From Scenedesmus sp. PABB004 (Eukaryota), in assembly GCA_014905635.1 (NCBI GenBank), contig JABVCE010000011.1, positions 1,054,001 to 1,118,000 of the forward strand: a DNA stretch of 64,000 bases. The letters are read 5' to 3'. How positions within the stretch are numbered: the first letter of the stretch is position 1; each line of letters begins with the position of its first letter. Made by a program: the position numbers and the translations under genes. Of this stretch, positions 9,750 to 61,021 are shown in pieces. The notes beneath the pieces are model-generated. The model was not told the DNA's origin and did no database searches. It saw only the letters and a program-made list of their open reading frames with translations.

Positions 9750-12098
9750 ATGCAGCAGCGGGCGCCGGGCCGCGCCGCGGCGCCGGCGCGGCCGCAGCGG
9801 TCGGCCATGGTCTGCCGGGCTGCTGCGGACGCGCCCAAGCGCGTGGTGGTGCTCGGCGGCACGGGGCGCGTCGGGTCGGCGAGCGCAGCATCGCTGGTGG
9901 AGAACTTTGGCGCCCGCTACGAGATCACCGTGGCCTCCCGCAGCGCGGAGTCATTCGAGAAGGCCGTGGCGTTGCGCCCCGCCCTGAAGGCGGCGCGCTT
10001 CGCGGCCTGCGACATCGGCGACAAGGGCGCCGTGAAGGTGCGCTGCCCCGCCCAGCGTGTGGCCCGGGGGCCGCGCGCCGCCGCCGCGCGCCGCCGCGCG
10101 GCCGGCCGCCGGCGCAGCCGCCGCCCCGCGCGCGGCGCCGCCCTCCCGCCGCCGCCCCACAGCCGCTGCCGCCGCGGCGCCGCGGCGCGCGCGCAGGCGC
10201 TGATCGGCGGCGCGGACCTCGTGCTGCACACGGCGGGGCCGTTCCAGCACTCGGCCAACTTCAACGTCATCGAGGCCGCCCTCGAGACCGGCACGCCCTA
10301 CGTCGACGTCTGCGACGACACCGCCTACTCGGAGCGGTGCGCGGGCAGCTGCGCAGCGGCGCCGAGCTGCCGCGGTCGGAGCCGCGCGGGCGCCGCCGCC
10401 GACGCCCCGCATGCCGCGCGCGCAGCGTGAAGGGCTACCACGACGCCGCCGTCGCGGCGGGCGTGCCCGCGCTCACCACGGCCGGCATCTACCCAGGCGC
10501 GGGCTGCTCGGCGCCGCGGGCTGCTCGGCGCCGCAGGCTGCTCGGCGCCGCAGGCTGCTCGGCGCCGCCGTGCGCTGCTCGGCGCGTCGCGCTGCGCCGG
10601 CTCAGCCCCCCCCCCCCCCCCCCCCGCCGCCGCGCGCAGGCACGAGCAACGTGATGGCCGCGCACATCATCGCCATCAGCCGCGGCGAGTACGACGACGA
10701 CTGGGCCTACCGCACGCCCGAGCCGGGTGCGGCGCCCGGCGCCCGCGCGCGCGGCGCCCGCGCGCCGGCGGCGGCGGGCCCGCCATTGTCGGCCCGGCGC
10801 CGACCCGCGCGCCGCGGTCCCGCCGCCGCGCCGCCCGCAGGCGCGGGCGTGGAGCCGGCGATGCTGCGCTATAGCTATTACACCGCCGGCAGCGGGGGCG
10901 CGGGGCCGACGATCCTGGAGACGAGCTTCCTGCTCGCGGGCGAGCCGGTCACGGTCTACCGCGATGGGCAGGCCTTCACGCTGCCGCCGATCAGCAACCC
11001 GCGCGAGGTCGACTTTGGCCCCGGTGCGCGGCGGGCGCGCCGCGGCCCGCGCGCACGCCGCCGCCCGCGCATCCGCCCCCTCGCGTGCGCAGCCGACGCC
11101 GCCGACGCCGCGCGCGCGCGCCGCGCGCGCCGCCGCCGCCGCGCGCCCGCGCCGGCCAGGCCTCGGGCGCAAGAGCGTGTGGCTGTACAACCTGCCGGAG
11201 GTGGCGTCGGCGCACAAGTACCTGCGCGTGCCGGGCGTGAGCGCACGGTTTGGGACCGACCCCTTCATCTGGAACTGGGCGATGTGGGCCGTCGCGCGGC
11301 TCTGCCCGCCGGGATTCCTCAAGGACCGCAGCCAGGCACGGCGGCGCGCGGCGGCGCGCGGCGGGCGCGGCGGGGCAGCGCAGCAGGGCGCGGCGGGGCA
11401 GCGCAGCAGGGCGTGGCGGGAGCTGGGGCGCGGCGGCGGGGCGGCGCAGCGCGCCCACGGCGCGCGCGGCCGCGGCGCGCGGGCGCGCAGGTGCGGGGGC
11501 TGGCCAAGCTGAGCGACCCCTTCGTGCGCGCGGTGGACAGGATCATCGGCGAGGCGGTGGTGCGCCCGCGCCGCCGCGCTGCGCCGACGCGCTGTGCCGC
11601 GCGCCCCGGCCTTACCTCGTGTCGCGCGCGCCGGCTGCGCCGTGTGTCGCGCGCCGTGTGACGCCCGCGCCGCGCCGCGCAGGGCATGCGCGTGGAGGTT
11701 GACTTTGAGGGCGGTAAGAACGCGGCGGGCATCTACGTGCACAAGCGCCTGCCCGAGGCCATGGGCAACAGCGTCGCCGCGTTTGCGCACGCCGTGCTCA
11801 GCGGCCAGACGGCGCCGGGCGTGTGGTACCCGGAGGAGCGCGAGGCCCTCGCGGTGCGCTTGCGGGGGCGCAGGGCTGCGCGGCGCGCGGCGCGGGGGCG
11901 CGGCGGCGTGGCACGCCGGCCGGCGGCGCGGAAGGCGTGACACCGCGTGGCACCGCGCCCCGCCGCTTCCCCTCCACCCAGGACCGGCGCGCGTTCCTGC
12001 AGTACGCGTCCAAGGGCTGCAGCCGCTTCGACCTCAACCGCCCGGCGTGGGCGCTGGAGAGCGAGGTGCGGCAGCTCGGCGGGCTCATTTATTGGTGA
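9750..12098 (+). CDS. Saccharopine dehydrogenase-like NAD(P)-binding oxidoreductase, probably plastid-targeted
   Basis: Transit-like N-terminus, VVVLGGTGRVG Rossmann motif, DLVLHTAGPF, YVDVCDD, TAGIYPG|TSNVMA, YYTAGSGGAGPTIL, GVWYPEE; ends LGGLIYW*. Eight introns, two with GC donors (10497, 11336). Confidence 0.88.
10501..10568. repeat. 17-bp intronic tandem repeat x4
   Basis: (R)GGCTGCTCGGCGCCGC four times inside GC-AG intron 10497-10639. Confidence 0.85.
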
Positions 12099-12212
12099 GC
12101 CGGCCGCGCGCACGCGGGTGGCTGCAGGCGCAGCCACGCCGCGGCGGGAGAGTTGCAGGAGCCGTTGCGTGCGTGAGAGAGGGGCCTGCCGTGCGGCGCC
12201 CTGTGGCGCCGC

Positions 12213-12217
12213 TGTAA
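12213..12217 (+). terminator. Chlorophyte poly(A) signal TGTAA
   Basis: TGTAA 115 nt after the stop at 12098. Confidence 0.65.
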
Positions 12218-12536: not shown

Positions 12537-15500
12537 ATGTTTCGGCCGTCCTGCGCCGCCGCGCAGGCGCGCCCGGCGCTGGCCCGGCGCTGGCTTGCGG
12601 CGCCCGTCCTCTGTCACGGCGTGCGGCCTGCGGTGGGATGTCAGGTGGGGCTGTCGCGGCGTCGTGCGGCGGCGGGCGCCGCGCTGCTGCCTGGCCGCGA
12701 CGCGCGCATGCATGCTGCCCGGCCCCCCGCGACGCCGCTCTGCCGCCTGCTCGCAGGCGTCCCTGAGCAGCATCAGCAGCAGCAGCAGCCGGCAGCTGGT
12801 CGCCACCGCGCGCAGCGGCGGCGCCGCAGCGGCCCTGCAGCCTGGAGCGCGGCGACGCCGCGGCGTCGCGGCCGCGGCGGCCGCGCCGCCGCCCGGCGAG
12901 GGCGCGCTGCCGGCTGACGACGACCTGGCGGCCGACGACAACATCATTCTCCTGGGCAGCGAGGACGAGGAGGACGACGAGCTCGGCCTCGGCGGCGCGG
13001 GCGATGCCGACTTTGTGCGGGCGATGGCGACCGCGCGGCGGCGCGCCGAGTCCGGCAGCAGCGGCGACGACGACGGCGACGACGACGGCTGGGACGACGG
13101 CGCGCGGCGCTCGTCGGAGGTGCGCGGCGGGGGGAGCCAGCGGGGCGCGCCCGCCGCCCCCGGCGTCCGCAACCGCGCGCTGCCGCGCCGCGCGCCGCCC
13201 CGGCCGCGCGGCCGCGCGCTCGCAGGACGGCGACGACGACGCCTTCTGGTCGACCCACCGCGAGCGCGTGTACCTGGTCGGCGTGAGCTGCAGCGGCCGC
13301 GCCGGCGGCGGCGGCGGCGCGCGGCGGCGCGGCGGCGAGGCCGCGTACAGCGTCACGGAGTCGCTGGAGGAGCTCGGGCGCCTCGCCGAGACGGCGGGGC
13401 TGCAGGTCGTGGGCAGCACGTACCAGGCGCTCGAGGCGCCGAGCAACGCGACCTACATCGGCAGCGGCAAGGTCGCCGAGGTCGCGCAGGCGGTCGCCGC
13501 GTTCAAGGCGCGGACGGACGCCGGCATCGCCCGCGCAGGCCGGCCGCCGGCGCGCGCCCGCGCGCAACACGTGCGACGCGTGCCGCGTGCCGCCGCCGCC
13601 GCGCGCGCTCGGCGCCGCGCGCCGCAGGTGGACACGGTCATTTTTGACGACGAGCTTTCTCCTGGGCAGCTGCGCAACCTGGAGAAGGCGTTTGCGCGCA
13701 AGGACGGCCAGCAGGCGCGCGCGCGGGGGTGCCGCCTGGCTGTAGCGGCTGCGGTCCCCCCGGCGGCGCGCGCGGCGGGGCCGCGCCCGGCGACGCCCGC
13801 GCCGCGCCGCGCCGCGCCGCAGGTCGCCGTGGCGGACCGCACCGCGCTCATCCTGGACATTTTCAGCCAGCGCGCGCGCACGCGCGAGGGCAAGCTGCAG
13901 GCGCGCGCGCTGCCCTGCGCGTCCGCCGCCGCGCCGCGCTCTGCCCGTGCCGTGCCCGCCGCCCGCGCGCCCGGCCCCGCGCGCCCGGCCCCGCGCGCCC
14001 GCGAGCCCCTTCCTGCCCGCCCGCGCCCTCCTCCCCTCCCCCTCCCCTCCCCTCCCCAGGTGGAGCTCGCGCAGACGGAGTACCAGCTGCCGCGCCTCAC
14101 GCGCATGTGGACGCACCTCGACCGCGTGGCCGGCGGCGGGCAGGTCAAGGGCGCGGGCGAGAAGCAGATCGAGATCGACAAGCGCCTCCTGCGCGACCGC
14201 GCGGCGGCGCTGCGCCGCGAGCTGCAGGCCGTGCGCACGCACCGCGCCGCGCACCGCAGCCGCCGCAGCGACGCGCCCATCCCCGTCGTCGCGCTCGTGG
14301 GCTACACCAACGCGGGTGCGGCGCACCGCCGCCGCCCGCCCGCGCCCTCGCTCGCGCTGCGTCCCCCCTTGCGGCGCGCCGCCGCTCCCCTCCCCGCCCG
14401 CGCGCGCCGCCCGCGCACCCGCGCCCGCGCACGCCGAGCCCGCCCCCGCTGCCGCGCACCCGCTGCCCGGCAGGCAAATCTACGCTGCTCAACACGCTCA
14501 CCGCGGCGGGCGTGCTGGCGGAGGACAAGCTCTTTGCCACGCTCGACCCCACGACGCGCAAGGCGCGCGCGCTGGGACAGCGGGGCCTAGGTTCAGGGCG
14601 ACGGCGGCCAGCGGCAACGGGGCTCCTGATCCTGCCGCGGGCGTGCAGGTCAAGGAAACGCCACGCGCGCGCACCAACGAATCACGCGCTGCGCTCGGGG
14701 CGCCGCCGCGCGCAGGTCCGGCTGGACGGCAACCTGGAGGTCCTCTTTAGCGACACGGTCGGATTCATTCAGAAGCTGCCCACGCAGTTGGTTGCAGCGT
14801 TCAGGGCGACGCTGGAGGAGATTGCGGCCGCCGCGGTGGTGCTGCACGTGCTCGACGTCTCCGCGCCAAACGCGGCCGCGCAGTGCGCGGCGGTGCTCAA
14901 GGCGCGGCGCAGCCGGCGCCGCGGCGCCCGCGGCCGGGCGGCGGCTCCCTCCCCTCCTCCCCGCTGAGCGCGCCGGCACGCGCCGCGCGCCGCGGCAGGT
15001 GCTGGAGGAGCTGGGCGTGCAGGACCTGCCGCTCGTGACGGCATGGAACAAGCTCGACGCGTGCCCCGCGCCCGACGCGGTGCGCTCGCTCGCGGCGGCG
15101 CGGCCCGACACCGTTGCGATCAGCGGGGCGACCGGGGAGGGCATGGACGCGCTGCTGGCGGCGATCGGGGACAAGCTCGCGGAGGCGATGGTGGAGGTGC
15201 AGGTGCGCGCCGTGCCGCCGCCGCGCCGCCGCCGCCGCCGCCCGCCCATGCCGCCTGCCACCGCGCCACCCCCCCCCCCCCACACACACACACACACCCT
15301 CGCCGCAGGTGCTGCTGCCCTACTCTGCCGGCGCGCTGCTGGACGACGTGCACAAGATGGGCGTCGTGAGCGCCGAGGCCTACACCGAGGCCGGCACGTC
15401 GCTCACCGCGCGCGTGCCGCGCTGCCTCGTCGGCCGGCTGGCGCGCGCGGCGGCCGACGCCGCGGCGGCGGGCGGCAGCGTCAGCAGCGGCGTGTTCAGC

Positions 15501-18921: not shown

Positions 18922-20294
18922 TCACTCGCCGCTCCCGCCCTCGCCGCCGCTCCCGCCGCCGCGCAGCAGCTCGTCGCCGGTCGCGAGCAGGCGCTGCAGC
19001 GTCGCGTCGGCCTCGCGGCGCATTGCGCTGATCGTCGCGTCCTTCTTGGCCAGCACGGCAGCGAGCCGCACCTGCACGCGCTCCAGCTCCAGCGCGTGCT
19101 GCGCGCGGAGCTCGCGGTCCTGCGCGCGGCGGCGGTGCGCGGCGCGGTGCGCTCGGCGGGGAGGGCCGGCGGCTCCCCCGCCGCGGGCGGCGCCGCGCCG
19201 CGCCCGACGCGTCCGCCCCAGCGCGCGGCGCGGCGCGCCCACCGTCGCGCGCGCCTCGCGCTGCGCCGCGGCCAGCTGTGCCCGCCAGCTGGCCTCCAGC
19301 GCGGCCCGCTCCGCCTGGGCGCGCGCCGCGCCGTCAGCGAGCGCCGCCTCGGCCGCCGCGAGCCGCTGCTGCAGCGCACCGGCCGCGGCGTCGTGCGCGG
19401 CCGATGCTGCGGCCGCCGCCGCCGCCACCGCCGCCTGCGCCGCCGCGAGCTCGCCCTCCGCCGCCGCGCAGCGCTCCTGCCTGCGCGACGGAAGCAGGCG
19501 GCGCCGCGGCTCCGCGCGCCGGACGGCCGCCGGCGCGCACGCGCACGCCCCGCGCCCGCCCGCGCCGCCCCCGCCTCACCACTGCGCCGCGGCGGCGGCC
19601 TCGCGCGCGACGCGCTCCGCCGCGACGGCCTGGACCGCCTCGACCTCGCCCTGCGACCACTCCTCCACCTCGGTCAGCAACGCCGCCGCCTGCGCGCGCG
19701 CGGCCTCGCGCTCGGCCGCCGCCGCCGCGTCGCGCTGCTCGAGCTGCGCGCGGATGTCGGCGAGCGCCTGGCGGTGCGCCGCGTTGCGCGCCGCGAGCGC
19801 CTCGGCGTGGCCCGCGTCGCGCGCCGCGAGCGCCTCGGCGTGCCCCGCCTCCAGCGCCGCGAGCGCCTCCGCGCCGCGCTCCGCCTGCGCTGCCAGCGCG
19901 CGCTTGTCCCTGCGCGCGCCCCAGGACGGCGGCGCGCCGCGCGGGCCGTCAACGCGCGGGTCAACAGGGCGCGCTCACGGCGGGGCTCGGCGCTCGCCAC
20001 CGCCGCACCGCCGCACCGCTCGGCGTGCTGCCTCGCCTTGGCGGCGCGCTCCAGGCTGTCCTTGAGCCGGGCCTGCGCGGCCGCGAGCTCGCGGCCCTGC
20101 GCCTCCAGCGCCGCCTCGAACGCCGCGCGCTGCTGCGCGAGCGCCGCGGTCTCCGCCTCCTTGGCCCTCGCCCGCCCGTCCGCGAGCCAGGCCTGGTCCG
20201 CCTTCATCACCGCCACCTGGGCCTTGAGCTGGTCGTAGGCCGCGCGGCGGCCGCCGCCGCCGCCGGCGGCGACGCGCTCGCCGTCGGGCGCCAT
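18922..20294 (-). CDS. Coiled-coil protein with CEP131/AZI1-like C-terminus
   Basis: Ala/Glu/Arg heptad-rich exons joined by three GT-AG introns. The C-terminal LELERVQVRLAAVLAKKDATISAMR resembles the conserved CEP131 tail (recalled similarity, not searched). Confidence 0.55.
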
Positions 20295-20558: not shown

Positions 20559-22274
20559 ATGCTCCTGGGGGCGCGCTCCGCCACGCAGCTGCGGCGAATT
20601 GCCGCGCCGCGGCACCTACGGGCGCGGCAGTCGCGCCTGGTCACCGCGGCCGCCGCGCAGAAGCAGGACGTGCTCCTTCGCAGGCACGAGTGGCCGCCGC
20701 TGCGCCCGCCGCCCGCCGCCGCGCATGCGCGGGCGCGCCGCGCCCCCCTTGCAGCTGCCCGGCAGCTCACCGGCGCGCCCTTCGGCTCACCCGCTGCCGC
20801 CGCCGCCACCTGCGCTGCAGCCTGAGCGACATGGGGGAGGTCGCGGTGCTGGTGGCCGACGGCACCCAGCTGGTCCAGGAGGCGATGACCCGCCACAAGA
20901 CGGCGCCGACCGCGACCGCCGCGCTCGGCCGCACGCTGCTGGGCGCGGCGCTGCTGGGCGCGTACCGCAAGGAGGAGGAGCAGATCCAGGTGCGCGCGGC
21001 GGGGGGGGGGGGGGCACACGGCAGAAGTAGGGGAGGCAGCGGCTGGCGCGCGCCGCACGTGCGCGACGCAGCGCGCCCACGCGCGCGCCGTTGGCACCCG
21101 CGCGCGCTCGCCGCGCGCAGATCCAGTTCAAGGGCGACGGCCCGCTCGGCGGCATCCTCGCGGTCGCTGACACGCGCGGCCAGGTCAAGGGCAAGGTCGG
21201 CAACGCAGCCGCCGACCCGCCGCTGCGCCCCGATGGCAAGCTGGCGGTCGGGGCCGCGGTCGGCCAGGGTGCGTGCGGCGCGAGCGCCGGTGGTCGCCGC
21301 GCCGACTGCGCCGCGCGCCGCGCGCCGCGCGCCGCCGGCCGACCGCGCCCGCGCCACCCGCGCGCCGGCGCGCAGGCCAGCTGTGCGTGACGCGCAGCCA
21401 CCCGGGGCAGCCGCGGCCGTACATGGGAGTCGTGAATATCGTGAGCGGCGAGGTGGCCGAAGACCTTGCCACGTACTTGGTGCGCGGATCGGCCGCGCAG
21501 CGGACGCGGGCGGCGCAGCGCGGCGCGGGCGCGGACACGCGGCGGGGCCCGCAGCGGCGGCCGAGTGGGCGCCCGCGCGCTGCAGGCGGAGAGCGAGCAG
21601 ACCAACTCGGCGCTCGCGCTGGGCGTGTGCATCGGCCGCGACCTCAACGTGCGCTCGGCGGGCGGGTACCTGGTGCAGGTGTGTGCGCCCCGCGCCGCGC
21701 CGCGCCGCGCCGCGCGGCGGCGGCAGTCTGCCAGCGGACCGGCCGGCCGGCGGGCGCCTCACGCGGCGCGGCGCGCGCGCCGCCGCCGCCGCCGCAGGTG
21801 CTGCCGTTTTGCAGCGACGAGACGCTGGACCAGCTGGAGGCCAACCTCACCGGCATGCCCTCCATGACCGCGCTGCTGAACGAGGGCCTCACGCCGCAGC
21901 AGATCACGGACCGCATCCTCGCCGGCCTCGGCAGCAGCGCGAGCGGCGAGAGCATCGTGCCGCGGTGGGCGGGGACGCGCGCGGCGCGCGGCGGGGGGGG
22001 GGGGGGCAGCGCGGCGCTGAGCGCGCAGCGCGGCGGGGGCGCTGCAGCTTGCGCGGGCGCCGACGCGTGGGCCCCCGCCGCCGCCGCCGCTGCGCCCAGG
22101 TACGGGCCGTGCCAGGCGGCGGAGCTCAAGGGCCGCATGCTGCGCGCCGTCGCGTCGCTGGGCGCGGCCGAGGTCAAGAGCATCATCGAGGAGCAGGGGC
22201 ACGTCGAGGTGACGTGCGAGCTCTGCAACGAGCAGTTCAGGTTTGCTGAGCAGGAAGTCATGGAGTATGTGTGA
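20559..22274 (+). CDS. HSP33: HSP33 redox-regulated chaperone, plastid-targeted
   Basis: HKTAPTATAALGRTLLGA, IQFKGDGPLGGI, SGEVAEDLATYL-AESEQTNS, AGGYLVQVLP, VEVTCELCNEQF. Six introns, the first with a GC donor at 20684. Confidence 0.95.
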
Positions 22275-22710: not shown

Positions 22711-24320
22711 ATGCCGTTCAAGCGCTACGTGGAGATCGGGCGGGTGGCCCTGGTCACGTTTGGCGAGGACTACGGCAAGCTCGTGGTCATCTCCGACGTG
22801 GTCGACCAGAACCGGGTGCGGCGCGGCCCGGCGGCGGGCGCGGGCGATGCGCGGTGCCCGATGGCGCCGCAGCTCGGCGGCCGGAGCCGCTGCGGGCGCG
22901 GCGCCGGGCTGGGGGCGCGGCGGGGCGCGGCCATGGCGCCGGGGCCGGCGCGCCACCGCGGCCGGGGCGGGCAGCAGCTCGGGGGCCGGCAGAGGCAGCC
23001 GGCTGCTGCAGGGCGGAGCAGCACCAGCCCCGGCCGGGGCCGCAGCCCAGGCCGGCGCAGCGGGAGCGGCGGCGGTTCACCAGCCCGGCGGCGCGACGGC
23101 CGGCCAGCGGGCGCGCCGGCGGCGGGCTCGCGGCAGCAGCGGCGGCCGCCGTCGTGTGCTGCTGGCCGGCGGAGCGACCGCGCGCGGTCGCTGCAGCGCG
23201 CGGCGTGCAGCCTGAGCACGCTGGAGCCGCGGCGGCAGGGCAGCAGCCGCTGGCGGCGCAGCAGCAGCGGGAGCCGCTGCAGCAGCAGCGCCGGCGGCGC
23301 CCCTCGCGCGGCGACGCCACGGCCGGGGTCGGTGCACGGTCCCTGTTGCGCTTCGGAGTGCCCGTTGCGCTTGCTGCAGCGCAACGGGAACCGTGCGCCG
23401 ACCCCGGCCACAGTCTCCGCGCCCGCGAGTCGCCGCGTCGGATGCAGCCGGCGGCCGCCGCGCCGGCCGCGGCGCGGCGCACCCGGGCAGCGCGCGCGCC
23501 CAGCAGCGGGGGGGGGGGGGGGGGGGGGGGGCGGGGAGGGGCAGCCGAACGCGGCGCGCCGGCCGCGGCCGCTCGGCGTCACCGGCGCCGCGCCCGCCGC
23601 AGCAGCAGCGGCGCTCACGCGCGCCCCTCCGCGCGCGCAGGCGCTCGTGGACGCGCCGACGGAGGCGCGCCGCGTGATGAACTTCAAGCGCCTCACGCTG
23701 ACCGACCTCACGGTCGAGATCCCGCGCCTGGCCAGCAAGAAGGTCCTCACCCAGGCCTTCAACGCTGCCGGTGAGCGGCGCGCGCGGCCGGCGAGGGCCG
23801 CGGGGGGACCGCGGGCGCGGCGCGGCCGGCGAGCGCGGCGGCAGGGCGGGGCGTGCCGGCGCGGCGGCGGCGGCGGCGGCGGCGGCGGCAGCGGCGGCAG
23901 CGGCGGCGGCGGCGACGGCGGCGACGGCAGCGGAGGGGCCGCAGCGGCACCGGCAGCGCGCGGCGAGCGGCAACGGCAGCAGGGCGGCTCCTGCGCTCGC
24001 GCGCGCGCGCGCGCACATGCGCACGCGGCAATGGCGGCGCGTGCCCTGCGCACCCTGCGCGCCCTGCGCACCCTGCGCGCCCTGCGCGCCCTGCGCGCCC
24101 TCACGCCCTGGCCACCGGCGCCGCGCGCCGCCCCCGCCGCGCGCGCCGCGCAGACGTCGCCGGCAAGTTTGCGGCGTCCGCGTGGGGCAAGAAGCTGGCG
24201 GCGCGGTCGGCCAAGGCCAGCATGTCTGACTTTGACCGCTACGCCGCGATGGTCGCCAAGGCCAAGAAGAACCGCGCCGCGCGCAAGGCGTTCAACCAGC
24301 TGAAGAAGGCGGCCGCCTAG
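22711..24320 (+). CDS. RPL14: 60S ribosomal protein L14 (eL14)
   Basis: [15 protein letters not shown]...[20 protein letters not shown]...[10 protein letters not shown]...|...SAWGKKL...MSDFDRY. Introns 22816-23640 (825 nt) and 23771-24153. Confidence 0.97.
23321..23409 (+). ncRNA. Candidate intronic pre-miRNA-like hairpin
   Basis: Arms 23321-23352 and 23378-23409 pair at 31 of 32 positions (two G-U pairs, one C-A mismatch) around a 25-nt loop. Function is inferred only. Confidence 0.5.
24043..24096. repeat. 9-bp intronic tandem repeat x6
   Basis: (R)CCCTGCGC six times in RPL14 intron 2. Confidence 0.85.
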
Positions 24321-45435: not shown

Positions 45436-46054
45436 CGCACTTTCCATCATACTGCACAGTTTGATTGTACTTGCTTGCGTGGCGGCGCGCGCACGCGCGT
45501 GGAGCGCGGTGCCCGCGCAGCGCGGCACGCCCGCCGCCGCGCCGCGCCGCCCGCGCCCGCCCGCAAGCCTGCCTGTCTATTGCCTCCCGCGTTGGGGGTG
45601 TGCATGGATTGGCTGCGTGCGCGCCGCGCACACCGTTGGAGTGCTGGGGCGCCGCGTTGGCGCCGGCAAGTACGACTGCGTTTTGAGTTGGCAGCCGCGC
45701 CCGCCCGCCGCCGCCGATCGCGCCCGACCGCTGGCGCTGCAGCGGACGCCGCGGGAGCTCTTGTCGCTCGGCGAGCGGGCCTGGGCGGGCAGCCCGCCGG
45801 GCGCCCGGGGCACGGCAGCAGCAAACCCCCTCGGCTCGAAGGCCCCTGCGCGCGCGCCCGGCCGCCCCGCGCCGCCGGCGCTGCCCAGATCGACGCTCCC
45901 CGCCGCTCCGCACCGCGCACGCCAGCCCTCCGCCCCACCCGCCCGCCGTGCGCGCGCGCCGAGCCCGGCTCTTGCCATCACCGGCCCCTGGCGCGTGCGC
46001 TGCCCGCGGACTGGCGCATGCGACGCGCTCTGGCATGAGGCCGGCCGGGCAGAC

Positions 46055-49000: not shown

Positions 49001-50275
49001 CCAGTTCCTGCCCAAGGAGTGGATCATGGTGCGGCCCCCAGGGGCCAGGGGGGGGGGTGCAGCAGCGAGCAGCGCCGCGCGGGGCCGCCGGACGCGGACG
49101 CAGGCGGACGGGCGCGGCGCGGCGCGGCGGCGCGCGCGGCGGGGGCGTCGGCGGCGCGGCAGGCGGCGAGCGGGCCGGGCCGCCCACCGCGCCGCACCGC
49201 CGCGCCTCCCCGCCCGTCGTGTGCGCGCAGGAGAAGTGGGAGGAGGGGTACTACATCACCGCGATGGCGGGGTCCATGTCGAGCGCGAGCCTGGTGGTCA
49301 TGTCCAAGGGCACGCCCTACACGCAGCAGTCGTACAAGGCGCGGCGCGCGCGGCGGCGCAGACCGCGCGGCGCGGGGCAGACCGCGCGGGGCGGGGCAGA
49401 CCGCGCGGCGCGGGGCAGACCGCGCGGGGCGGGGCAGACCGCGCGGCGCGGGGCAGCGCGCGGCGCGCGCGCGCGCGCCCCCCGCCTCGCCCCGCGCTCG
49501 CTCGCCCGCCCACCCGCCGCCGCGCCACACCCACACGGCCTCACGCCCACACGGCCTCCCTCCCCCTCCCTCCCCCTGCCCAGGTGTCCGACTCCTTCCC
49601 GTTCAAGTGGATCAACAAGAAGTGGAAGGAGGGCTTCTACGTCACCTCCATGGCCACCAGCCACACGCGCTGGGCGGTCGTGATGAGCCGCAACGCCGGC
49701 TTCGTCGACCAGGCGCGCGCCCGCGCAGCGCGCGCTGCGCAGCGCGCGCTGCGCAGCGCGCGCGCCGCCGCAGGCCCCGCCCGCCGCGGGGTCCGGGCGG
49801 CGGCGCCAGCCGGCGCGCGCGACGCCCCGCTCACCCCGCCCGCCGCGCTCACCCCGCCGCGGCCACCCGTGCCTCTGCTGCGCAGTGCGTGGAGCTGGAC
49901 TTCCAGTACCCCAGCGAGGGCATCCACCGCCGCTGGGACGCGGGCTTCCGCATCACCGCCTGCGCCGCGACGCCCGACCAGAGCGCGTTTGTGCTGAGCG
50001 TGCCGCGCCGGCGCCCCATGGACGAGACGCAGGCGCGCGCCGCCCCGCGGCGGGCGGCGCACGGCGCGGCGCGCAGCACGCGGCTGCGCCCCTGGACGCG
50101 TCCCCCCGCGCGCGCGCCGCCGGCCTCACGCCCGCGCGCGCCCGCGCGGCGGCGGCGCCGCTGCCGCGCGCAGGAGACGCTGCGCACGAGCGCGTTCCCG
50201 AGCAGCCACGTCAAGGAGAAGTGGGCCAAGAACCTCTACATCGCCGGCATCGCCTACGGCCGCACCGTCAGCTGA
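46055..50275 (+). CDS. MUT9: MUT9/MLK (plant-type casein kinase 1-like) Ser/Thr kinase
   Basis: [95 protein letters not shown]; ends YGRTVS*. Thirteen introns, six with GC donors. Confidence 0.93.
49358..49452. repeat. 19-bp intronic minisatellite x5
   Basis: GCAGACCGCGCGGSGCGGG five times in MUT9 GC-AG intron 49339-49583. Confidence 0.85.
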
Positions 50276-51024
50276 GCCGCCGCTGCGCACTGCCGCCGCC
50301 CCGGCGGAGCCGGCCCGGGCGCGCGCCGCGGCGCGCGCGCGCGGGCGGCGCGGCGGCGCGGCCCCAGCAGGCGCTGGGGCGGGCCGCCGCGCGGGGCGGC
50401 GGGCGGGGCGGGCGGGGCGGGCGGGGCGGATGTGGGCCGGCTTAGGGTAGGTCCAGGCCCGGCAGGCCAGGCAGCACAGCGCGGGCCCGGGCGGCGCGCG
50501 CCGCACGGCGGCGCGCGGGTTTGTCTGTGTGCACATGTGTGCGGGCGCGTGGCGGGGCTGCCGCCTGTGTAGTGCGCCTCTGTTTGTGCGCGCGGCGCTG
50601 CGTGCGCGCGCGCCGCCGCCGCTGCCCGCGGGGCGCCGCCGCCAACTCGCGGTCGAGAGCGGGCGGCCGGCGCCGGCGGGGCGCGGTGTCAGCAGGCCGG
50701 CGGCGGCCTCGCGTGTGCGCGTCGAGGCGGCGCCTCCTCGTTTTGCTGCGGCCCCGCGCGTCTCGCTTCCCAGCGCGGGCCGCCGGCCGCCGCGGCGCGC
50801 AGCGCACGCCCACTTCTTCTGCCGGACGGGCGCCGCGCGTGTTGGAGCTGGTTGCGCCGGCGCCGGCGGGGCGCGCGCCCTCTCTCTGTCTCCCTCTCCT
50901 GCCCCACGCGCGAGCCGGCCGCGCTGCGCGCTCGCACGAGCAAGGGTAACCCCGCGACGCGCCGCCGCGAGCCTCTTTGTTACCCCAGCTCAAGCGCCGC
51001 GCCCCGCCCCGCCCGGCCGCGCGC

Positions 51025-53155
51025 TCACTGCGACGCGGCGCCCGCGGCCTGCTGCTGCTTGAGCCGCGCGACCGCGCGCCAGCCGATGTCGGTGCGGTAG
51101 TACGCGTCGTCCCAGGCCACGCCCGCGACGCCCGCGTACGCGGCGGCCTGCGCGGCGGCGACGTCGTCGCCGAGCGCCGTCACGCCCAGCACGCGCCCGC
51201 CCGCCGCGACGAGCCGCCCGCCGCCGTCGAGCGCGGTGCCGGCGTGGAAGACCTTGGCCCCGCCCGGCACGCCGCCGGCGGGGGGCAGGCCGATGGGCGT
51301 GCCCTTGGCGTAGGCGCCGGGGTAGCCCTTTGCCGCCATGACCACCGTCAGCGATGCGCGCGGGCTCCAGCGCAGCGACACGTCGCGCAGCCGCCCGTCG
51401 CACGCCTGCGCGCGGCGCGCCGGCCGCGGCGCCGGCCGCGCGTGAGCCCCGCCCGCCCCGCCGCGCGCCGCGCGCCGCAGCCTCGGCCCGCCCCCGCCAC
51501 CAGGCCCCGCGCGCCGCCGCGCCGCCGCGCAGCCGCCGCGCCTGCAGTAGCGCCGCGAGCAGGTCGCTGTCGAGGCGGGCCATGAGGCCCTGGCACTCGG
51601 GGTCGCCGAAGCGCACGTTGTGCTCGAGCAGCTTGGCGCGGCCGTCCTTGATCATCAGCCCCGCAAACAGCACGCCGCGGAAGGGGCAGCCCTCTGCGAC
51701 CATCGCGCGCGCAGTGGGCAGCACAATGTCGGCCATGACCTGGGGGAGCGCCGGACGCCGCGGGGCTCAGCGTAAGGCTCAGCGGCGGGGCTCAGCGGCG
51801 GGGCTCGGCGGCGGGGCTCGGCGGCGGGCACGGGCGGCGGACGCGGGCGGCGCAGCGTGCGTGCTGCGCGCGGGGTGCACAGCGCGGCGTGCGTGCTGCG
51901 CGCGCGGCGCGCCTGGGCCTCAATTTCGGGCGTGACCACTGGCGCGGGCGAGTACGCGCCCATGCCGCCCGTGTTGGGCCCCGTGTCGCCGTCGCCCGCG
52001 GCCTTGTGGTCCTGCGCACGCGCGCGACGCGGCGGCGCGCCCCGCCCACGCGTCAGCGCCGCGCGGCGCGCCGCGGGCGGCGGCCGCGCGTGCGCGCGTG
52101 CGGGCGCGGGCGCGGCGGGTCGACCCCGGACGCTCATCACCTGCGCGCTCGCGAGCGCGACCGCGTCCTCGCCATCCACCAGCGCGAAGAAGCTCGCCTC
52201 CTCGCCGTCCAGAAACTCCTCAATCACCACCTGCGACCCTGACATAGGTTGCAGCGGCGCGCGGCGCGCGGCGCGGCGGCGCGCGGCGTGGGCCGTCTGC
52301 GCGCCCGCGCGGCCGGCCGCCGCCGGCGCGCTGCGAGCCCCCGCGCGGCGCGGCGCAGGCGGCCGGCGCCCGTCCCCTCCCCTCCCCTCTCCCTCCCCGC
52401 CCCGCCCCCGCGGCGTGCGCACCCGCGTCGCCGAAGACGGCGCCGACGAGCATGTCGTCCACCGCGGCGCACGCCTCGTCGACGCTCGCCGCGACGATGA
52501 CGCCCTTGCCCGCGGCGAGGCCGCTCGCCTTGACCACGATCGGCGCGCCCGCGGCGCGCACGTACGCCTTGGCGGCCTCCGGGTCGGTGAACACGGCGTA
52601 GCCGGCGGTGGGGATGCCGTGCTTGGCGCAGAGGTCTTTCATAAAACTCTTGCTGCCCTCGAGCCGCGCCGCGGCCGCGCTCGGCCCAAACGCGCGCACG
52701 CCCGCGGCGGCGAGGTCGTCGGCGAGCCCCGCGACGAGCGGCGCCTCGGGCCCCACCACGACGAGCCCGACGCCGTGGGCCTTGCAGAAGGCCGCGACGG
52801 CGGCGTGGTCGGAGACGTCGAGCCCCGCCGCGTCGGCCGAGACCTTGGGCTCGGCCGCGATGCCGGGGTTGCCCGGCGCAGCGTAGAGCGTCCCGCACAG
52901 CTCGCTCTGCGCCAGCTTCCACGCGAGCGCGTGCTCGCGCCCGCCGCTGCCGACGAGCAGCACGTTGGTGGGCGCGAGGCCGGGCGCGCCGGCGGCGGCG
53001 GCCGCCGCGGGCGCGAGCCGCCGCCGCTGCGCCCGCGCGGGGGCCGCGGCGCGCCGCGGCGCGGGCCGGGCCGCGGGGCCGGGCCGGGCAGGGGCTGCCA
53101 GCGGCGCCCGGCCGGCCGGGAGGCCCGCCGCGGCGGGGCGGTGGCAGAGGAGCAT
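51025..53155 (-). CDS. purD: Phosphoribosylamine-glycine ligase (GAR synthetase), organelle-targeted
   Basis: [61 protein letters not shown]...[37 protein letters not shown]. Four introns, two with GC donors. Confidence 0.97.
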
Positions 53156-56521: not shown

Positions 56522-56549
56522 CGAGCTCCCCGCCGCGCCACGGCGCGGC

Positions 56550-58045
56550 TCACGCGCCGGCGTCGTAGTGCTCCTCCTCCTCGTGCGCCGGGGCCGCCGC
56601 CGGCGCGCCCTCCTCCTCGCCGCCGCCGCCGCCGCCGCCCTCCTCGTCGCCGCCGCGCTGCTGCTGCTGCTCGCTGCCGCCGTCGCCGCCGCCGCCGAGC
56701 TTGCGCCGCTTCCAGCGCATCGCCGCCTCGAGCAGCTTGAGGTTAGGCGCGCCGCCGGCGTCCTCAGGGAAGATGTAATCGTAATACTCCTCCAGCACGC
56801 CCGGCCCGCCCCCGGCGCGGGGCGCTTGCGCTTGACGCGCTTCGGCATCTTGCGCTCCACCGCCGTCACCGCGGCCGCGACCTCGTCGCGCCGCCTGCGC
56901 GGTGTGCGGGGCGCGCGGCGCGCGGCGGGCGCTCAGCGACGGGTGCGGCGGCGGCGCTGCTGCCACGCGGCGGCAGCGCAGCGGCGGCGCGGCGCGCCTG
57001 AAATCGCTGCAGCCCGCCTCAAAGTCCCTCCACGCCTCGAGCAGCATGACCGCCTCCTCCTTGGCCTCAGGGCTGCCCTCGCGGATGGACCTGCGGCGCG
57101 GCGCGGCGGGCAGGGCGCGGGGGCGGCGTTCGGAGGCCGCGGGCGGCGCGCGGGCGCGGCAGCAGCGCCCGCAGCAGCAGCTGGTCACCTGAAGCCGCGC
57201 TCGTAGACGGTCCGCGCGCGCGCGGCGCGCGCCTCGCGCTCCGCGGCGCTGCTGCCCTCGCCGGGCGGCGGCTCGCTGCGCGGCGGCGCGGCGCGGCGGG
57301 TGCAGGCGCAGGGCGTCGGCGGCGGGGCCGGCGGGCGGCGGGGAGGCCGCTGCGGGCGCGGTGCGCCGCGCTGCGCCGCGCGTCGCGTCGCCGCGCGCAC
57401 CGCTGCGCGGCCTGCTCGTCGTCGGCGTCGGGCTGCGGCAGCGGCTCGGCCTCGAAGCGCGCAAAGCTGATCCAGACCTTGACGTGCTTCGTGCGGTCCA
57501 GCAGGCGCTCGTACAGCAGCCGCGTGCGCTCGCGGTTGCCCTGCGCGCGCGGCGGGGCGGGCGGGCCGGCGCGCGGGGCGCGTCGGCGTCCGACGCGCGC
57601 CGGCGTGCGGCGGCGCGCGCGGGCGGGCGCGAGCCCACACGCAGCGCGGCGCGGCGCTGCAGGCTCTGTGTGTGAGCGTTTGGCCGCGTTCAGCCGCACC
57701 TGGCCGATCTCAAAGTCGATGTAGGCCTTCCAGACCGCCTCGGGCATGTCGAGCACCGGCTGCGCGATCGCGAGCTCGTACAGCGCGCGCGCCCGCCCCG
57801 CCTCGGCCAGCAGCAGCTCCAGCTCGGCGTACCTGGGCGGCGCGCGCGTGCGCGCGTGAGTGCGCGCGCGTGTGTGAGGAAGGGCGGCGGCGAGGCGCGC
57901 CAGCGAGGCGGCGGCGGCGGCGGGCGGCGGCGGCGGGCGGCGCGGGCACGCGGCGCGCACTTGAGCCAGGCCGTCGCGTTGGCGGGGTTCCACTCGAGGT
58001 ACTTCTCATACAGCGTGCGGCACCTGGGCGGCAGCGGCGGCGCGA

Positions 58046-58135
<90 letters not shown>

Positions 58136-61021
58136 TGCGTGCGTGGGCGCGGGCGCGGGCGCTGGGCGGCGCCGCGCGCCGCGCGCCGCGCGCGGCCGGG
58201 CGCTGCGCCGCGCCGCCGTCACAGGCCTCCTCACCGGTCGATGTTGCCGAGCGTGAGCTCCAGCGCGATGTACTCCCGGAACAGCTTGTCCTTGGGGCAG
58301 CTGCCCAGCGCGAGGCCGAGGATGCGCCGCGCCGCGGGGAGGCGCTTCGACCGCACCTCGAGCTTCGCCGCGAGGAGCCAGAGCTTGGCAAACGTGAAGG
58401 AGCCGTGCGGGACGAGCTTCAGCGCCGCCCTGCGGCGGCGGCGCAGCGTTGTGGGCGCCCCGCGCTGGCCCCAGCCGCCGCCCGCGCCCCGGCCGCCCAA
58501 TCCGCCCCCTCCGGCCCCCTCCTCGCCGCGGCGCTCGGCGCGCACGCGCGCGCGCGGCGCGCACCTGTAGACCTCGCGCGCGCGGTCGGCGTCGCCGGCG
58601 TCGAGCTCCTCGAAGAGCGCGTACTTTATCCACAGGTACACGTAGCGCCGCCAGTAGCGCTTGTCCGCCCCCGGCGGCAGGTTGGCGACCGCGCGCTCGT
58701 ACACCTGCGAGGTGCGCGCGGGCGTGGGTGTGAAGGGGGGGCGGCGGGTGCGTGGGTGTGGGTGTGGGGAGGGGGCGGGGTCAGGCCGGCGGCGCGAGGG
58801 CCGGGAGCCAGCGGGCGCGGCGGGCGGCGGCGCGGCGCGCGCGCGTGCCTCGCGGATGCGCTCCGTGTCGTGCGTCGACTCCTCGAGCTTCACGTAGTCG
58901 AACCACGCGTCGTAGTTGAGCGGGTCGGCCTTGACCTGGGCCTCGTACGTGAAGCGCCGCTTCGACAGCACCACGTCCTCAATGCCCTCCCTGCCGGACG
59001 CGCCACGGCCACGCGGCGGCGCGGTCACGCGGCGGCGGCGTGAGCGTCAGCGCGGCGGCGCGCGAGCGCGGCGGCGCCGCGCCCACGCGCGGGCCGGGCC
59101 GTCCCCTCCTGCTCCCGCCCGCACCCTCTCCCCCCCCTGCCTCCCTCCCTCCCTCGCTCCCCCCGGCCGCGCGCCGCGGGGGCCGCACCGCGAGCCGTGC
59201 TGCTTCTCGAACGCGACGAAGCGCGCGTAGAGGCCCTGCGCGGCGGCCTTGGGCAGGTGGTCCAGCGCGTAGCGAAAGATCGCGCGCGCGCGCTCCGGCT
59301 CCTTGACCAGCTCCTCAAACTCGGCAAAGCGCAGGAAAAACTCCTCCTGGCGGCGGCGGTTGGTGTTGTGTGCGGGAGAAGGGCGCGCGCGCCGCAGGGA
59401 GAGACAGGGCGTGAGCCCGGGGCGTGTGGTGCGCGCGCGGCGGCGGCGCGCGGGCGGCGCGGGGGCCAGCCGCACCGTGTGCGCATCCTCGCCGAGCGCC
59501 TCCAGCGCGCGCTCGTAGCAGCTGCGCGCGCGCTCCACCTGGTTGTGCTGCAGCTCAAACTGCGGGGCGGCGCGCGGCGCAGCTGGAGCCGCCACTGCGC
59601 CGCGCGGCGCGCCCCGCCCCGCCCCGCGTTGCGCGGCCCCGGGCGGCGCGGCGCGGCGCGGCGCGCGCACCTTTGCGTAGCGCACCCACGCCTTGACGCT
59701 GGGCAGCACCTCCACGTAGCGCTCGTACACGGCGCGCGCGCGCTCCACCTCGGCGTAGCGCAGCTCAAACTGCGGCGACGCGCCGGCGCCCCGGCGGCGG
59801 CGGCGGCGGTCGGGGGGCCGGGGGCCGGGCGGCGGCGCGCGCGCCAGACACCCATACACCCACACACCCATACACACATGTTCACAAACAAAACAACAAA
59901 CAGACGCGTTTGCACAGCCCCACCTTGATGTAGGCCATCCACGCGGCGTGGTCGGGCTCAAAGCTCATCCAGCGGTCAAAGATGAGCCGCGCCTTGGCGG
60001 TCTCCTTGACCATCTCCTCCATGTGGATGTACTTGTACCACAGCTGGTCCACGCGCGGCAGCAGCGACACCGCGCGGTCCCACACGTTGCGCGCGTGGTT
60101 GACGAAGCGGTGCCGCATCTCCATCTCGGCGTACTGCCGCGCGGCGCGGGCGGCGCGGGCGGCGGGCGCGGCGTGAGCGGGCGCGGCGCGGGGCGTGAGC
60201 GGCGCGCGAGGGAAGGGGAGGGGGAGGGCGGCTGGGGGACGCGTCCGCGCCGCCCGCGCCGCGCCGCGCCAGCGCCGCGCCGCGCCGCGCCGGCGCCGCG
60301 CACGCGTGGCCCACCTTGAGCCAGAAGGGGACGTTGGTGTAGTCGACGTCGATGGCCCGCTCCCACACGCTGCGCGCGCGCCGGAAGTCCTTCTGGCTCT
60401 CCTCCCACGTCGCGTACTGCGGCGCGGCGGCGCGGGGGCGGCAGTGCGGCGGGGGCGCGTCGGCGGGGCGCGCCGCCGCTGCCCCCGCCTGCCGCCGCGG
60501 GCCGCCCCGCTGCGACGCCCGCCGCCGCGCCCGCCGCCGCGCCGCACCTTGGTCCATATGCTCGGGTTCCACCGCCCCACGCGCCGCACGTTGTCCTCAA
60601 ACTCCTTGCGCTTGCGCAGCCTGCGCGCGCGCGCGCGCGCGTGCCGGGCCGCGGCCGCGGCGGCGGCGCGTGAGCGGCGGCGCCGCGCGCCGCCATGCGC
60701 CTCGCGCGCGCGCTGCTCACGCTCGCCCGCCCGCGCGCCGCCGTGCCGCGGCGCGGCGCGGCGCGGCGGCACACAGCAGCCCCTTGCAGGAGGCGCGCGC
60801 GCGCGCGCGCACCGGTACTCGGCGAGCTCCTCGGGGTCGGTGATGATGGTCTTGGGCGCGCTGAAGTCGTCCTCGAGCTGTATGTCCTTCGACTCGCGCA
60901 GCAGCTGCTCCGCCGTGATCTGGCGCGCCGCGGGCGCCTTGTTCTTCACCTTCATGCTCTTGGGCATGCGGATGTCGTTCACGCTGCGCGGCGCGGCCGC
61001 GCCGCCGCCGGGGCCGCTCAT
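56550..61021 (-). CDS. CRNKL1: Crooked-neck (CRN/CLF1/SYF3) HAT-repeat splicing factor; one apparent frameshift near C-terminus
   Basis: [114 protein letters not shown]. About 15 introns, two with GC donors. Confidence 0.96.
58051..58134. repeat. (GGGCGC)14 intronic microsatellite
   Basis: Perfect hexamer array within a crooked-neck intron. Confidence 0.9.

Follow-up and report, generated by a model that had tools for sequence, protein, structure and literature searches.

We analysed a 64,000-nucleotide stretch of DNA from the green alga Scenedesmus sp. PABB004 (GenBank assembly GCA_014905635.1, contig JABVCE010000011.1, positions 1,054,001 to 1,118,000 of the forward strand; hereafter the window, whose own coordinates are used throughout), in which more than a quarter of the predicted introns start with GC instead of GT and end with AG (GC-AG introns). 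Gene content was taken from Pfam scans of read-through frames and predicted exons. The window carries dense nuclear genes on both strands, encoding a saccharopine-dehydrogenase-like protein, HflX, Hsp33, RPL14e, CCDC39, a protein with CH and MORN domains (CH+MORN), an ARL6-like GTPase, a PfkB kinase, CTU1/NCS6, a cyclic-nucleotide phosphodiesterase (PDEase), a MUT9/casein-kinase-1-like (MUT9/CK1-like) kinase, GAR synthetase and a crooked-neck-like splicing factor (CRNKL1/Clf1-like). The top protein matches are chlorophycean (Sphaeropleales and Chlamydomonadales). The genes are intron-rich, with about one intron per 470 bp of window. The assembly is tabulated at 39.8 Mb, 78.5% GC and 7,092 genes, compared with 13,000-18,000 genes tabulated for related Sphaeropleales (PMC12571836).

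The G+C content of the window is 77-81% in every 4-kb bin, and the sequence contains no N. Introns, at 87% GC, are richer in GC than exons, at 67%, as noted for the kinase gene (46627-50272, + strand) and for exons generally. The first, second and third codon positions of exons have GC fractions of 0.59, 0.43 and 0.985. The base composition of introns is 7% A, 46% C, 40% G and 6.5% T. The strongest coding signal in this genome comes from codons containing A or T, such as TAC, AAG and ATT. The window holds 618 stop-to-stop open reading frames of at least 40 amino acids, with a median of 140 and a maximum of 1131 amino acids. Since stop-to-stop frames are open by chance everywhere, an open frame is no evidence of coding in the window.

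A first-pass annotation of the window had named 36 GC donors. At every one of these positions we found an exonic AG on the strand given, followed by GCGCG (31 sites), GCACG (4 sites) or GCGAG (1 site). The heptamer AGGCRCG is not enriched in the window, where it occurs 105 times on both strands compared with 132 ± 12 in dinucleotide-preserving shuffles. The evidence for the donors lies in their position and not in the abundance of the motif. The heptamer is rather under-represented, since all 100 shuffles reached at least 105 occurrences; this deficit may reflect avoidance of the heptamer where it would act as a cryptic donor. The introns are listed below together with the evidence for each. 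'Ab initio' marks those for which the evidence is the gene model described further on, a slash between residue or profile positions marks the exon junction, and on the minus strand the donor is the higher coordinate.

10497-10639, + strand: GC-AG intron, saccharopine-dehydrogenase-like gene; ab initio; 143 nt, frame shift; no GT within 20 nt
11336-11490, + strand: GC-AG intron (GCACG), saccharopine-dehydrogenase-like gene; ab initio; 155 nt, frame shift
12567-12756, + strand: GC-AG intron, HflX N-terminal region; ab initio; 190 nt, frame shift; weak flanking coding scores, lower confidence
13508-13627, + strand: GC-AG intron, HflX; spliced alignment to homologue P0001; Pfam GTP-bdg_N continuous, 49(+2)/52
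13715-13822, + strand: GC-AG intron, HflX; donor 13715 in the model and 13721 in the aligner (two codons downstream, also GC); ambiguous within a GCGCGC run
13901-14059, + strand: GC-AG intron, HflX; spliced alignment; continuity from Pfam N- to M-domain
14563-14715, + strand: GC-AG intron, HflX; spliced alignment; MMR_HSR1 continuous, 40/40
14902-14998, + strand: GC-AG intron, HflX; donor by alignment and model; acceptor 14998 (model) or 15527 (P0001)
20684-20820, + strand: GC-AG intron (GCACG), 5' part of Hsp33; ab initio; 137 nt, frame shift; upstream of the Pfam-covered part
26039-26165, + strand: GC-AG intron, CCDC39; spliced alignment, 4 of 4 homologues
26867-26974, + strand: GC-AG intron, CCDC39; spliced alignment, 3 of 4 homologues
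27233-27332, + strand: GC-AG intron, CCDC39; spliced alignment, 4 of 4 homologues
32571-32681, - strand: GC-AG intron (GCACG, donor 32681), CH+MORN; ab initio; length a multiple of three, no stop; read-through -0.91 bits per codon, flanks +1.8 and +2.6
32802-32924, - strand: GC-AG intron (donor 32924), CH+MORN; ab initio; multiple of three, no stop
33115-33214, - strand: GC-AG intron (donor 33214), CH+MORN; ab initio; 100 nt, frame shift
34048-34211, - strand: GC-AG intron (donor 34211), CH+MORN; ab initio; frame shift and in-frame stop
35635-35717, - strand: GC-AG intron (donor 35717), CH-domain exon junction; ab initio; 83 nt, frame shift
36298-36389, + strand: GC-AG intron 1, ARL6-like GTPase; 92 nt, frame shift; no GT between the ATG at 36247 and the acceptor
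36453-36539, + strand: GC-AG intron 2, ARL6-like GTPase; PDB 4v0k_A 27/28 (exons 2 and 3); 87 nt, in frame; CTGAC branch-like motif
37121-37227, + strand: GC-AG intron 5, ARL6-like GTPase; PDB 4v0k_A 132/133 (exons 5 and 6); 107 nt, frame shift
39903-40061, - strand: GC-AG intron (donor 40061), CTU1/NCS6; spliced alignment, 6 of 6 homologues including the near-identical P0241
40532-40675, - strand: GC-AG intron (donor 40675, phase 2), CTU1/NCS6; spliced alignment, 6 of 6 homologues
41427-41667, - strand: GC-AG intron (GCGAG, donor 41667), CTU1/NCS6; spliced alignment, 5 of 6 homologues; P0241 starts inside it
42583-43142, + strand: GC-AG intron, gene upstream of or joined to PDEase; ab initio; 560 nt, frame shift and stop; acceptor uncertain
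43785-43898, + strand: GC-AG intron, PDEase gene; ab initio; multiple of three; start of the Pfam profile too near the junction
44368-44544, + strand: GC-AG intron, PDEase gene; PDEase_I continuity, exon ending at 116 and residue 1 of the next exon at about 118
46346-46422, + strand: GC-AG intron, N-terminal part of the MUT9/CK1-like kinase; ab initio; 77 nt, frame shift; no GT within 20 nt
47881-48079, + strand: GC-AG intron, MUT9/CK1-like kinase; spliced alignment, 6 of 6 homologues; P0121 gapless
48296-48420, + strand: GC-AG intron, MUT9/CK1-like kinase; spliced alignment, exact in 3 of 6 homologues
49339-49583, + strand: GC-AG intron, MUT9/CK1-like kinase; spliced alignment, 6 of 6 homologues
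49713-49885, + strand: GC-AG intron, MUT9/CK1-like kinase; spliced alignment, 6 of 6 homologues
50033-50173, + strand: GC-AG intron, MUT9/CK1-like kinase; spliced alignment, 6 of 6 homologues
51406-51541, - strand: GC-AG intron (donor 51541), GAR synthetase (purD-like); PDB 1gso_A, residues 2-63 matching 250-312, exon end at about 315, next exon from 316
51740-51912, - strand: GC-AG intron (donor 51912), GAR synthetase; GARS_A continuity 143(+2)/147(-1); 173 nt, frame shift
58705-58848, - strand: GC-AG intron (GCACG, donor 58848), CRNKL1/Clf1-like; four PDB chains, among them 9l5r_J 300-346/347-392 and 5mqf_O 467-512/513-558
56896-56997, - strand: candidate GC-AG intron (donor 56997), C-terminal part of CRNKL1; reads TTCAG/GCGCGCC, acceptor CGCAG/G at 56896; not recovered by the model
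33809-33926, - strand: additional candidate GC-AG intron (donor 33926, AAG/GCGCGG), outside the first-pass set; ab initio; multiple of three, no stop; acceptor 33809 (unconstrained run) or 33507 (constrained run)
19120-19254, - strand: additional candidate AG/GCGCG intron, outside the first-pass set; ab initio; multiple of three, no stop

Homologues found in protein searches were compared with the window by means of a custom protein-to-DNA spliced aligner using BLOSUM62, affine gaps, AG acceptors and a selectable set of donors. For 22 of the 36 donors there is support from spliced alignments, from PDB numbering or from Pfam profiles that run on across the junction. At 18 of them, in five genes, the spliced protein alignment placed a GC-AG intron exactly at the listed donor, while at 4 others (58848, 51541, 51912 and 44368) the residue numbering of solved structures or Pfam profiles is continuous over the junction. 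The resulting homology-validated set contains 44 introns from 5 genes, 26 with GT and 18 with GC donors.

The effect of allowing GC donors was measured on the MUT9/CK1-like kinase. With GT and GC donors, the homologue P0121 was aligned over 532 residues with no gaps, no inserted codons and 11 introns, 5 of them GC, at a score of 2593; the GC introns fell at exactly the positions of the first-pass annotation (47881, 48296, 49339, 49713 and 50033). With GT donors only, the score of the same alignment dropped to 2159 and 138 inserted codons were needed. Five further kinase homologues behave like P0121. The donor at 48296, which lies in a variable linker, was placed exactly by 3 of the 6 homologues, while the others took nearby GC donors at 48287 (two homologues) and 48320 (one homologue). 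When each of the 16 dinucleotides was offered as the extra donor, GC gave the highest score both in the kinase gene and in HflX. The runner-up was CG, which sits one base off in GCGCGC runs.

Similar results were obtained for the other genes. In CTU1/NCS6, 3 of the 7 introns are GC (41667, 40675 and 40061) and these were found with 5-6 of the 6 homologues. The NCBI protein NCS6 of Scenedesmus sp. PABB004 (P0241) corresponds to the product of the window after removal of the GC introns at 40675 and 40061, with 424 of 425 residues identical. CCDC39 has about 15 consistent introns, of which 3 are GC (26039, 26867 and 27233; 3-4 of the 4 homologues). For HflX, spliced alignment placed the donors 13508, 13901 and 14563 exactly; either of two GC donors fits at 13715/13721, and at 14902 the donor was found by alignment with an ambiguous acceptor. 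The first intron of the ARL6-like gene (36298-36389) causes a frame shift, and there is not a single GT from the ATG at 36247 to its acceptor. In the same gene the numbering of PDB 4v0k_A passes from residue 27 to 28 over the intron at 36453 and from 132 to 133 over the intron at 37121. Numbering is likewise continuous in four PDB chains over the CRNKL1-like intron at 58848 (for example, 346 to 347 in 9l5r_J) and from about 315 to 316 of 1gso_A over the GAR synthetase intron at 51541, and Pfam profile positions run on across 51912 and 44368. The GC-AG segments supported in this way are missing from homologous proteins, from PDB chains and from one deposited protein of the same species, which suggests that they would be removed from the mRNA.

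The deposited NCS6 protein has a different start. P0241 aligns from 41555, a position inside the segment 41667-41427 that alignment with the five other CTU1 homologues treats as intron 1, and its first residues differ from the read-through sequence. It seems that the public NCS6 model missed the GC-AG intron 41667-41427 and the true first exon (41733-41668, - strand).

In order to count GC introns over the whole window, we used a Viterbi gene model, run on strand blocks assigned by coding score. It has three components: codon log-odds, for which the exons of the kinase and HflX genes were set against the introns of these genes; an acceptor matrix computed on the homology-validated set of 44; and the donor pattern G-x-[GA]-N-G, derived from the donors of that set (+3G in 43 of 44, +5G in 44 of 44). 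With T or C allowed at x and the exonic AG not used, the model recovered all but one of the 44 introns of the validated set (43) and all but one of the 36 listed GC donors (35); the sole listed site that it did not recover is 56997 (- strand), at a locus where the frame changes again about 60-100 nt downstream. This context-free run with G[T/C][GA]NG donors returned 77 GC introns, including 42 outside the first-pass set, almost none of which follow AG. The 42 were rejected as false positives because they behave like the nonsense-dinucleotide controls described below. Gene finding without any model of the donor context was also discarded; it over-called GC donors (138-151 per strand) and found only 27-29 of the 44 validated introns.

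The final model allows GT and AG/GC[GA]NG, where the slash marks the exon-intron boundary, and yields 135 introns, 95 GT and 40 GC (30%). Restricted to the listed sites it gives 35 GC introns among 130 (27%), in agreement with the 36 of about 133 counted in the first-pass annotation. The five GC introns outside that annotation are doubtful; all have a length that is a multiple of three and no stop, and one of them (39471) contradicts the deposited protein, which reads through there. GC-AG introns occur in 12 of the 19 intron-containing gene models of the window.

Controls were run with other donors in place of GC. When AG/GC[GA]NG was added to GT, 40 of 106 coding-strand sites were used at exon-intron transitions, with a gain of 1428 bits. 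The corresponding controls AG/GG and AG/GA were used at 1 of 35 sites (10 bits) and 3 of 31 sites (61 bits), respectively. With GT and AG/GC already allowed, GC donors in other exon contexts were used at 1.3% of 3183 sites with 6.4 bits each, and the nonsense donors gave similar values: 1.6% and 6.4 bits for CC, 1.5% and 6.0 bits for CG, 2.0% and 3.5 bits for GG, and 2.7% and 7.1 bits for GA. Since GC donors that do not follow AG score like nonsense donors, GC outside the AG context is not detectable above noise, while the AG/GC class is strongly real. These results confirm that the GC-AG introns of the window are real, frequent and restricted in context, their splicing being predicted from homology, reading frames and coding scores.

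We then compared the GC donors with the GT donors. The 18 GC donors placed by homology, on which no pattern was imposed, have -2A, -1G, +3G and +5G in 18 of 18 cases and +4C in 17 of 18. Among the 35 GC donors of the model, -3 is C or A in 33, +4 is C in 34, +3 is G in 31 and A in 4, and +5 is G in all 35; in this set -2A and -1G (35 of 35) as well as +3 and +5 are imposed by the donor pattern of the model. Of the 95 GT donors, 30 have -2A and 75 have -1G, and at +4 there are 64 C, 13 A, 11 G and 7 T. Their +3G (94 of 95) and +5G (95 of 95) are again imposed, the values in the homology-only set being 25 of 26 and 26 of 26.

The usage of individual sites follows the same trend. AG/GCGCG was used at 32 of 59 sites, AG/GCACG at 4 of 8, AG/GCGAG at 2 of 6, AG/GCGGG at 2 of 20 (both doubtful) and AG/GCGTG at 0 of 8. 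For GT the values are 15 of 26 for AG/GTGCG, 6 of 8 for AG/GTGGG and 4 of 5 for AG/GTGTG. Three statements of the first-pass annotation on this point are borne out. It held that GC occurs only after an exonic AG, which is the case for 18 of 18 homology-validated GC donors, GC donors without AG being indistinguishable from nonsense controls. It held that donors of the GTGGG and GTGTG types keep GT, and the model took 10 of 13 AG/GTG[GT]G sites but only 2 of 28 AG/GCG[GT]G sites, each of these two being doubtful. It held that about half of the exons ending in AG use GC, and the model has 40 GC and 26 GT donors after AG. An impression from the 44 validated introns that AG/GTGCG is nearly absent (2 cases) was dropped, given the 15 of 26 such sites used window-wide.

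A C at +4 is found in 36 of the 40 GC donors but in only 15 of the 26 AG/GT donors (Fisher p = 0.005). At the 69 GT donors without exonic AG, +4 is C in 49, A in 13 and G in 4, compared with an intron background of 46% C, 7% A and 40% G. Relative to this background A is the most enriched base, C is mildly enriched and G is strongly depleted. Under GC pressure, C may simply do less harm at +4 than G. In sequence, the GC donors correspond to the species' own (C/A)AG/GTGCG consensus with T replaced by C at +2, and they are stricter at the other positions. The description of their consensus as atypical, given in the first-pass annotation, is not supported, as they carry the general donor consensus of the species and differ from it at +2 and in strictness.

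In other respects the GC and GT introns are alike. GC introns have a median length of 139 nt and GT introns one of 135 nt, and C makes up 54% of the last 30 nt in either class. The 35 model introns at listed sites all end in AG, and the 18 placed by homology likewise run from GC to AG. A branch-like motif C[CT][GC]AC, which was not used by the gene model, lies at -55 to -9 in 20 of 35 GC and 47 of 95 GT introns; close to the 5' end, in a region taken as control, it was present in 1 of 35 and 11 of 95. Phase 0 accounts for 34 of the 40 GC introns, the preceding codon being CAG, AAG or GAG. This bias is a consequence of codon usage. With 98.5% G/C at third positions, exons ending in AG are practically confined to those that stop behind an NAG codon (phase 0) or inside an AGN codon (phase 2), and phase 1 is rare among them. 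In the 44 validated introns the acceptor consensus CGCAG/G is unusually rigid (-3C in 44, -4G in 38, -5C in 39 and +1G in 34 of 44). A search with the MUT9 alignment of metagenome contigs gave 80 loci whose match spans equal the coding length; these are intronless, presumably from marine prasinophyte-like algae, and offered no introns for comparison.

We consider it likely that the GC-AG introns are ordinary U2-type introns in which a GC-driven change from T to C at +2 is tolerated only at otherwise optimal donors. According to this explanation, the introns would be substrates of the major spliceosome with a consensus 5' splice site (C/A)AG/GTGCG, and a genome-wide G/C bias, through mutation or biased gene conversion, would push +2T to C. 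Fixation of the C would require -2A, -1G and +5G together with -3C/A, +3G/A and, at +4, C or more rarely A. A donor that has +4G or +4T, or that is not preceded by an exonic AG, would be unable to lose +2T and would remain GT. This would account for the about 27-30% GC-AG introns found, nearly all of them in phase 0. We infer that removal is by the normal spliceosome, with compensation through U1, U5 and U6 contacts and GC pressure as the driver. The first-pass annotation also invoked GC pressure, and that part is plausible in view of the composition of the window (77-81% GC), its introns (87%) and its third codon positions (98.5%), the same link being in print; the rewired splicing machinery that it added is unnecessary. 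Since GTGCG is the local consensus, relaxed or rewired recognition is not required. The stricter context of the GC donors corresponds to classical GC-AG compensation and is the opposite of relaxation, and in two other algae rich in GC-AG introns the putative U1 5' end is reported as canonical (see below).

Several points weigh against this explanation or limit it. Splicing is deduced from protein homology, reading frames and coding statistics, and the GC-donor count comes from one 64-kb window. For 13 of the 36 listed donors the evidence is the ab initio model, and at 14902 alignment adds support for the donor only. The genes used to train the codon table and acceptor matrix of the model had themselves been delimited with GC donors allowed. 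While 21 of the 35 recovered GC introns are barred from read-through by a frame shift or stop, the other 14 have a length that is a multiple of three and no stop, and could in principle be retained or translated; what argues for their removal is the numbering of homologues together with the coding scores. At +4, C is preferred to G or T, which is opposite to what is expected from pairing with canonical U1, so that compensation with a standard U1 leaves details unexplained. An Rfam search of the 64-kb window at gathering thresholds, which would cover small nuclear RNAs (snRNAs), returned no match. For positions 42001-52000 no RNA run was listed; the sole entry was one freshwater-metagenome run, possibly of DNA, sharing 0.09 of the words.

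The canonical U1 5' end is ACUUACCUG, with a pseudouridine opposite +4, and the canonical U6 box is ACAGAGA. The behaviour of +4 could reflect a retuned recognition, in which U1, a second U1 variant or the ACAGA region of U6 has changed to pair with +3G and +4C and has made the +2 mismatch cheap. +4C behaves as a positive determinant, being present in 34 of 35 GC donors and 49 of 69 GT donors without exonic AG, but in only 15 of 26 AG/GT donors. That G or T at +4 is accepted with GT and not with GC is also not obviously predicted by canonical U1, and for Ostreococcus, with its GTGCGTG donors, a change of this kind was suggested as a possibility by Irimia and Roy (PMC2483917). On the other hand, A is the base most enriched over background at +4 of GT donors without exonic AG (13 of 69), as canonical U1 predicts, with C only mildly enriched, and the exon-side preference for (C/A)AG is the canonical U1-complementary one. 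In addition, the putative first 11 nt of U1 are given as identical to the consensus in Aureococcus, Micromonas pusilla and Micromonas RCC299 despite 40%, 22% and 2.7% GC-AG introns (PMC3033335). We therefore regard a retuned recognition as unlikely. A more specific form of it, in which the strict (C/A)AG/GC(G/A)CG grammar arose because the U1 5' end or a second U1 class co-evolved with GC content to pair with G(U/C)GCG, is a speculative and rather improbable proposal.

Some or all of the in-frame GC 'introns' might instead be translated as low-complexity insertions rich in Ala, Arg, Pro and Gly, or might often be retained. The 14 recovered introns mentioned above and all 5 extra candidates are of the kind that could be read through, in DNA of 80% GC frames stay open by chance to the lengths given earlier, candidate 39471 is read through in the deposited protein, and high intron retention is reported for Emiliania (PMC4028052). 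However, for 9 of the 14 the homologues, PDB chains or Pfam profiles are gapless after removal (for example 36453, 58848, 40061 and 40675), and reading through the in-frame segments scores -0.9 to -1.9 bits per codon compared with mostly +1 to +2.5 for the flanking exons. Third-position GC in the frame of these segments is 0.76-0.98, against about 0.95 in exons. An excess of lengths divisible by three among GC introns was considered and rejected, as 14 of 35 does not differ significantly from the 31 of 95 found for GT introns (p = 0.53), and the 21 GC introns with a frame shift or stop are left unexplained by translated insertions. We believe that this reading is very unlikely.

Introners are known in other algae. 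Copies of such elements with a GC donor, U12-type introns, or GT-to-GC errors in sequencing or assembly would be further sources of apparent GC-AG introns, and extreme GC content with runs of GC repeats is difficult to sequence; one locus of the window, in the C-terminal part of CRNKL1, has an unexplained frame discrepancy. However, AG/GTGCG is present and used at 15 of 26 sites, which argues against a systematic miscall of GTGCG as GCGCG, and the independently deposited P0241 matches the window across two GC junctions. A U12 origin was rejected because none of the 135 model introns starts with [AG]TATCC. An introner family was rejected as well: when the 135 introns were compared all against all by blastn, there were 23 non-self matches, of 19-136 nt and 73-89% identity (one 19-nt match being exact), weak matches as expected of GC-rich low complexity. 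An artefact or another intron class is thus extremely unlikely.

Ordinary GC-AG introns of animals and plants make up about 1% of introns and are compensated by a near-perfect match to the remaining consensus; work by Burset in 2000 and by Thanaraj and Clark in 2001 is said to have described how the rest of the consensus makes up for the +2 mismatch. Like these, the GC introns of the window need an exonic AG and the best intron-side consensus, and their match to the remaining donor positions is enhanced in the way that characterizes U2-type GC-AG compensation. They differ in being more than 20-fold as frequent and in reading GCGCG and not GCAAGT on the intron side, because the GT consensus of this species is GTGCG. 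A paper on Volvox splicing gives a general statement of 1-2% non-canonical introns.

Higher fractions have been reported from GC-rich algae. Iwata and Gotoh (2011, PMC3033335) give 39.6% GC-AG introns for Aureococcus anophagefferens, 22.2% for Micromonas pusilla CCMP1545 and 7.7% for Chlorella sp., which they attribute to G+C content, compared with a usual 1.3% over 61 species. These algae resemble the window in high G+C, in a ten- to forty-fold raised GC-AG fraction, in equal lengths of GT and GC introns and in the AG acceptor. Their G+C content is 66-70%, however, compared with 78.5% for PABB004 and 77-81% for the window, an unusually high value of the kind associated with GC-driven expansion of GC-AG introns. 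PABB004, a chlorophycean (Scenedesmaceae), is not covered in the accessible text of that study, and the strict rule of exonic AG and +4C, worked out here for the window, does not appear there either. In Emiliania huxleyi, 56-65% of donors are GC, as verified by reverse transcription PCR and RNA sequencing (Feldmesser et al. 2014, PMC4028052). There, as in the window, GC donors are paired with AG acceptors and tied to high GC, and predictors that favour GT mis-annotate genes; the about 27-30% GC donors of the window are predicted from homology, reading frames and coding scores, whereas those of Emiliania are transcript-verified. For pelagophytes 14-17% GC-AG introns are given (bioRxiv 10.1101/2024.10.30.620910). 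Ostreococcus lucimarinus has a donor consensus, GTGCGTG, described as 'atypical' (Irimia and Roy 2008, PMC2483917). It is a green alga with +3G and +4C donors like the window, and its authors mention matching snRNA changes as a possibility; in contrast to the intron-rich window with T or C at +2, it is intron-poor and has very strong signals and GT donors. Our literature searches returned nothing in print on abundant GC-AG introns in this chlorophycean lineage, and the window is probably the most GC-rich case of abundant GC-AG introns examined so far.

Abundant GC-AG introns in GC-rich algae have been in print since 2011-2014, and the main value of the present analysis is practical, for the annotation of this and similar genomes. 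Since GC-AG introns, one or more per model, are present in 12 of the 19 intron-containing gene models, most multi-exon genes will be truncated or frame-shifted by gene finders in which GC donors are forbidden or penalised. The window also offers a natural titration of the 5' splice site under GC pressure, in which +2T appears to be lost only when exonic AG, C or A at -3 and +4C occur together. The data give a quantitative view of the 5' splice-site contacts that can take the place of the +2 pair, and a sharp prediction about the 5' end of U1 follows from them. If the U1 of this alga has co-evolved, it would represent a retuned code between U1 and the 5' splice site in an intron-rich green alga, going beyond tolerance of a mismatch by a standard spliceosome.

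Some features of individual genes were observed in addition. In the middle of the GAR synthetase gene (52012-52423, - strand), GARS_A positions 80-112 are not covered by predicted exons of at least 20 amino acids, and two runs of the model gave differing short exons there together with doubtful non-consensus GC donors at 52426, 52152 and 52197. In the C-terminal part of the crooked-neck-like gene (56790-56900, - strand), the segment MPKRVKRKR and a second segment lie in different frames about 40 nt apart, too close for an intron; both seem to resemble CRNKL1 C-termini. An indel introduced in a G/C run during assembly, or else a feature not yet recognised, may explain this frame discrepancy. 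The RPL14e gene contains two unusually long GT introns on the + strand, 22816-23640 (825 nt) and 23771-24153 (383 nt), compared with a window median of about 135 nt.

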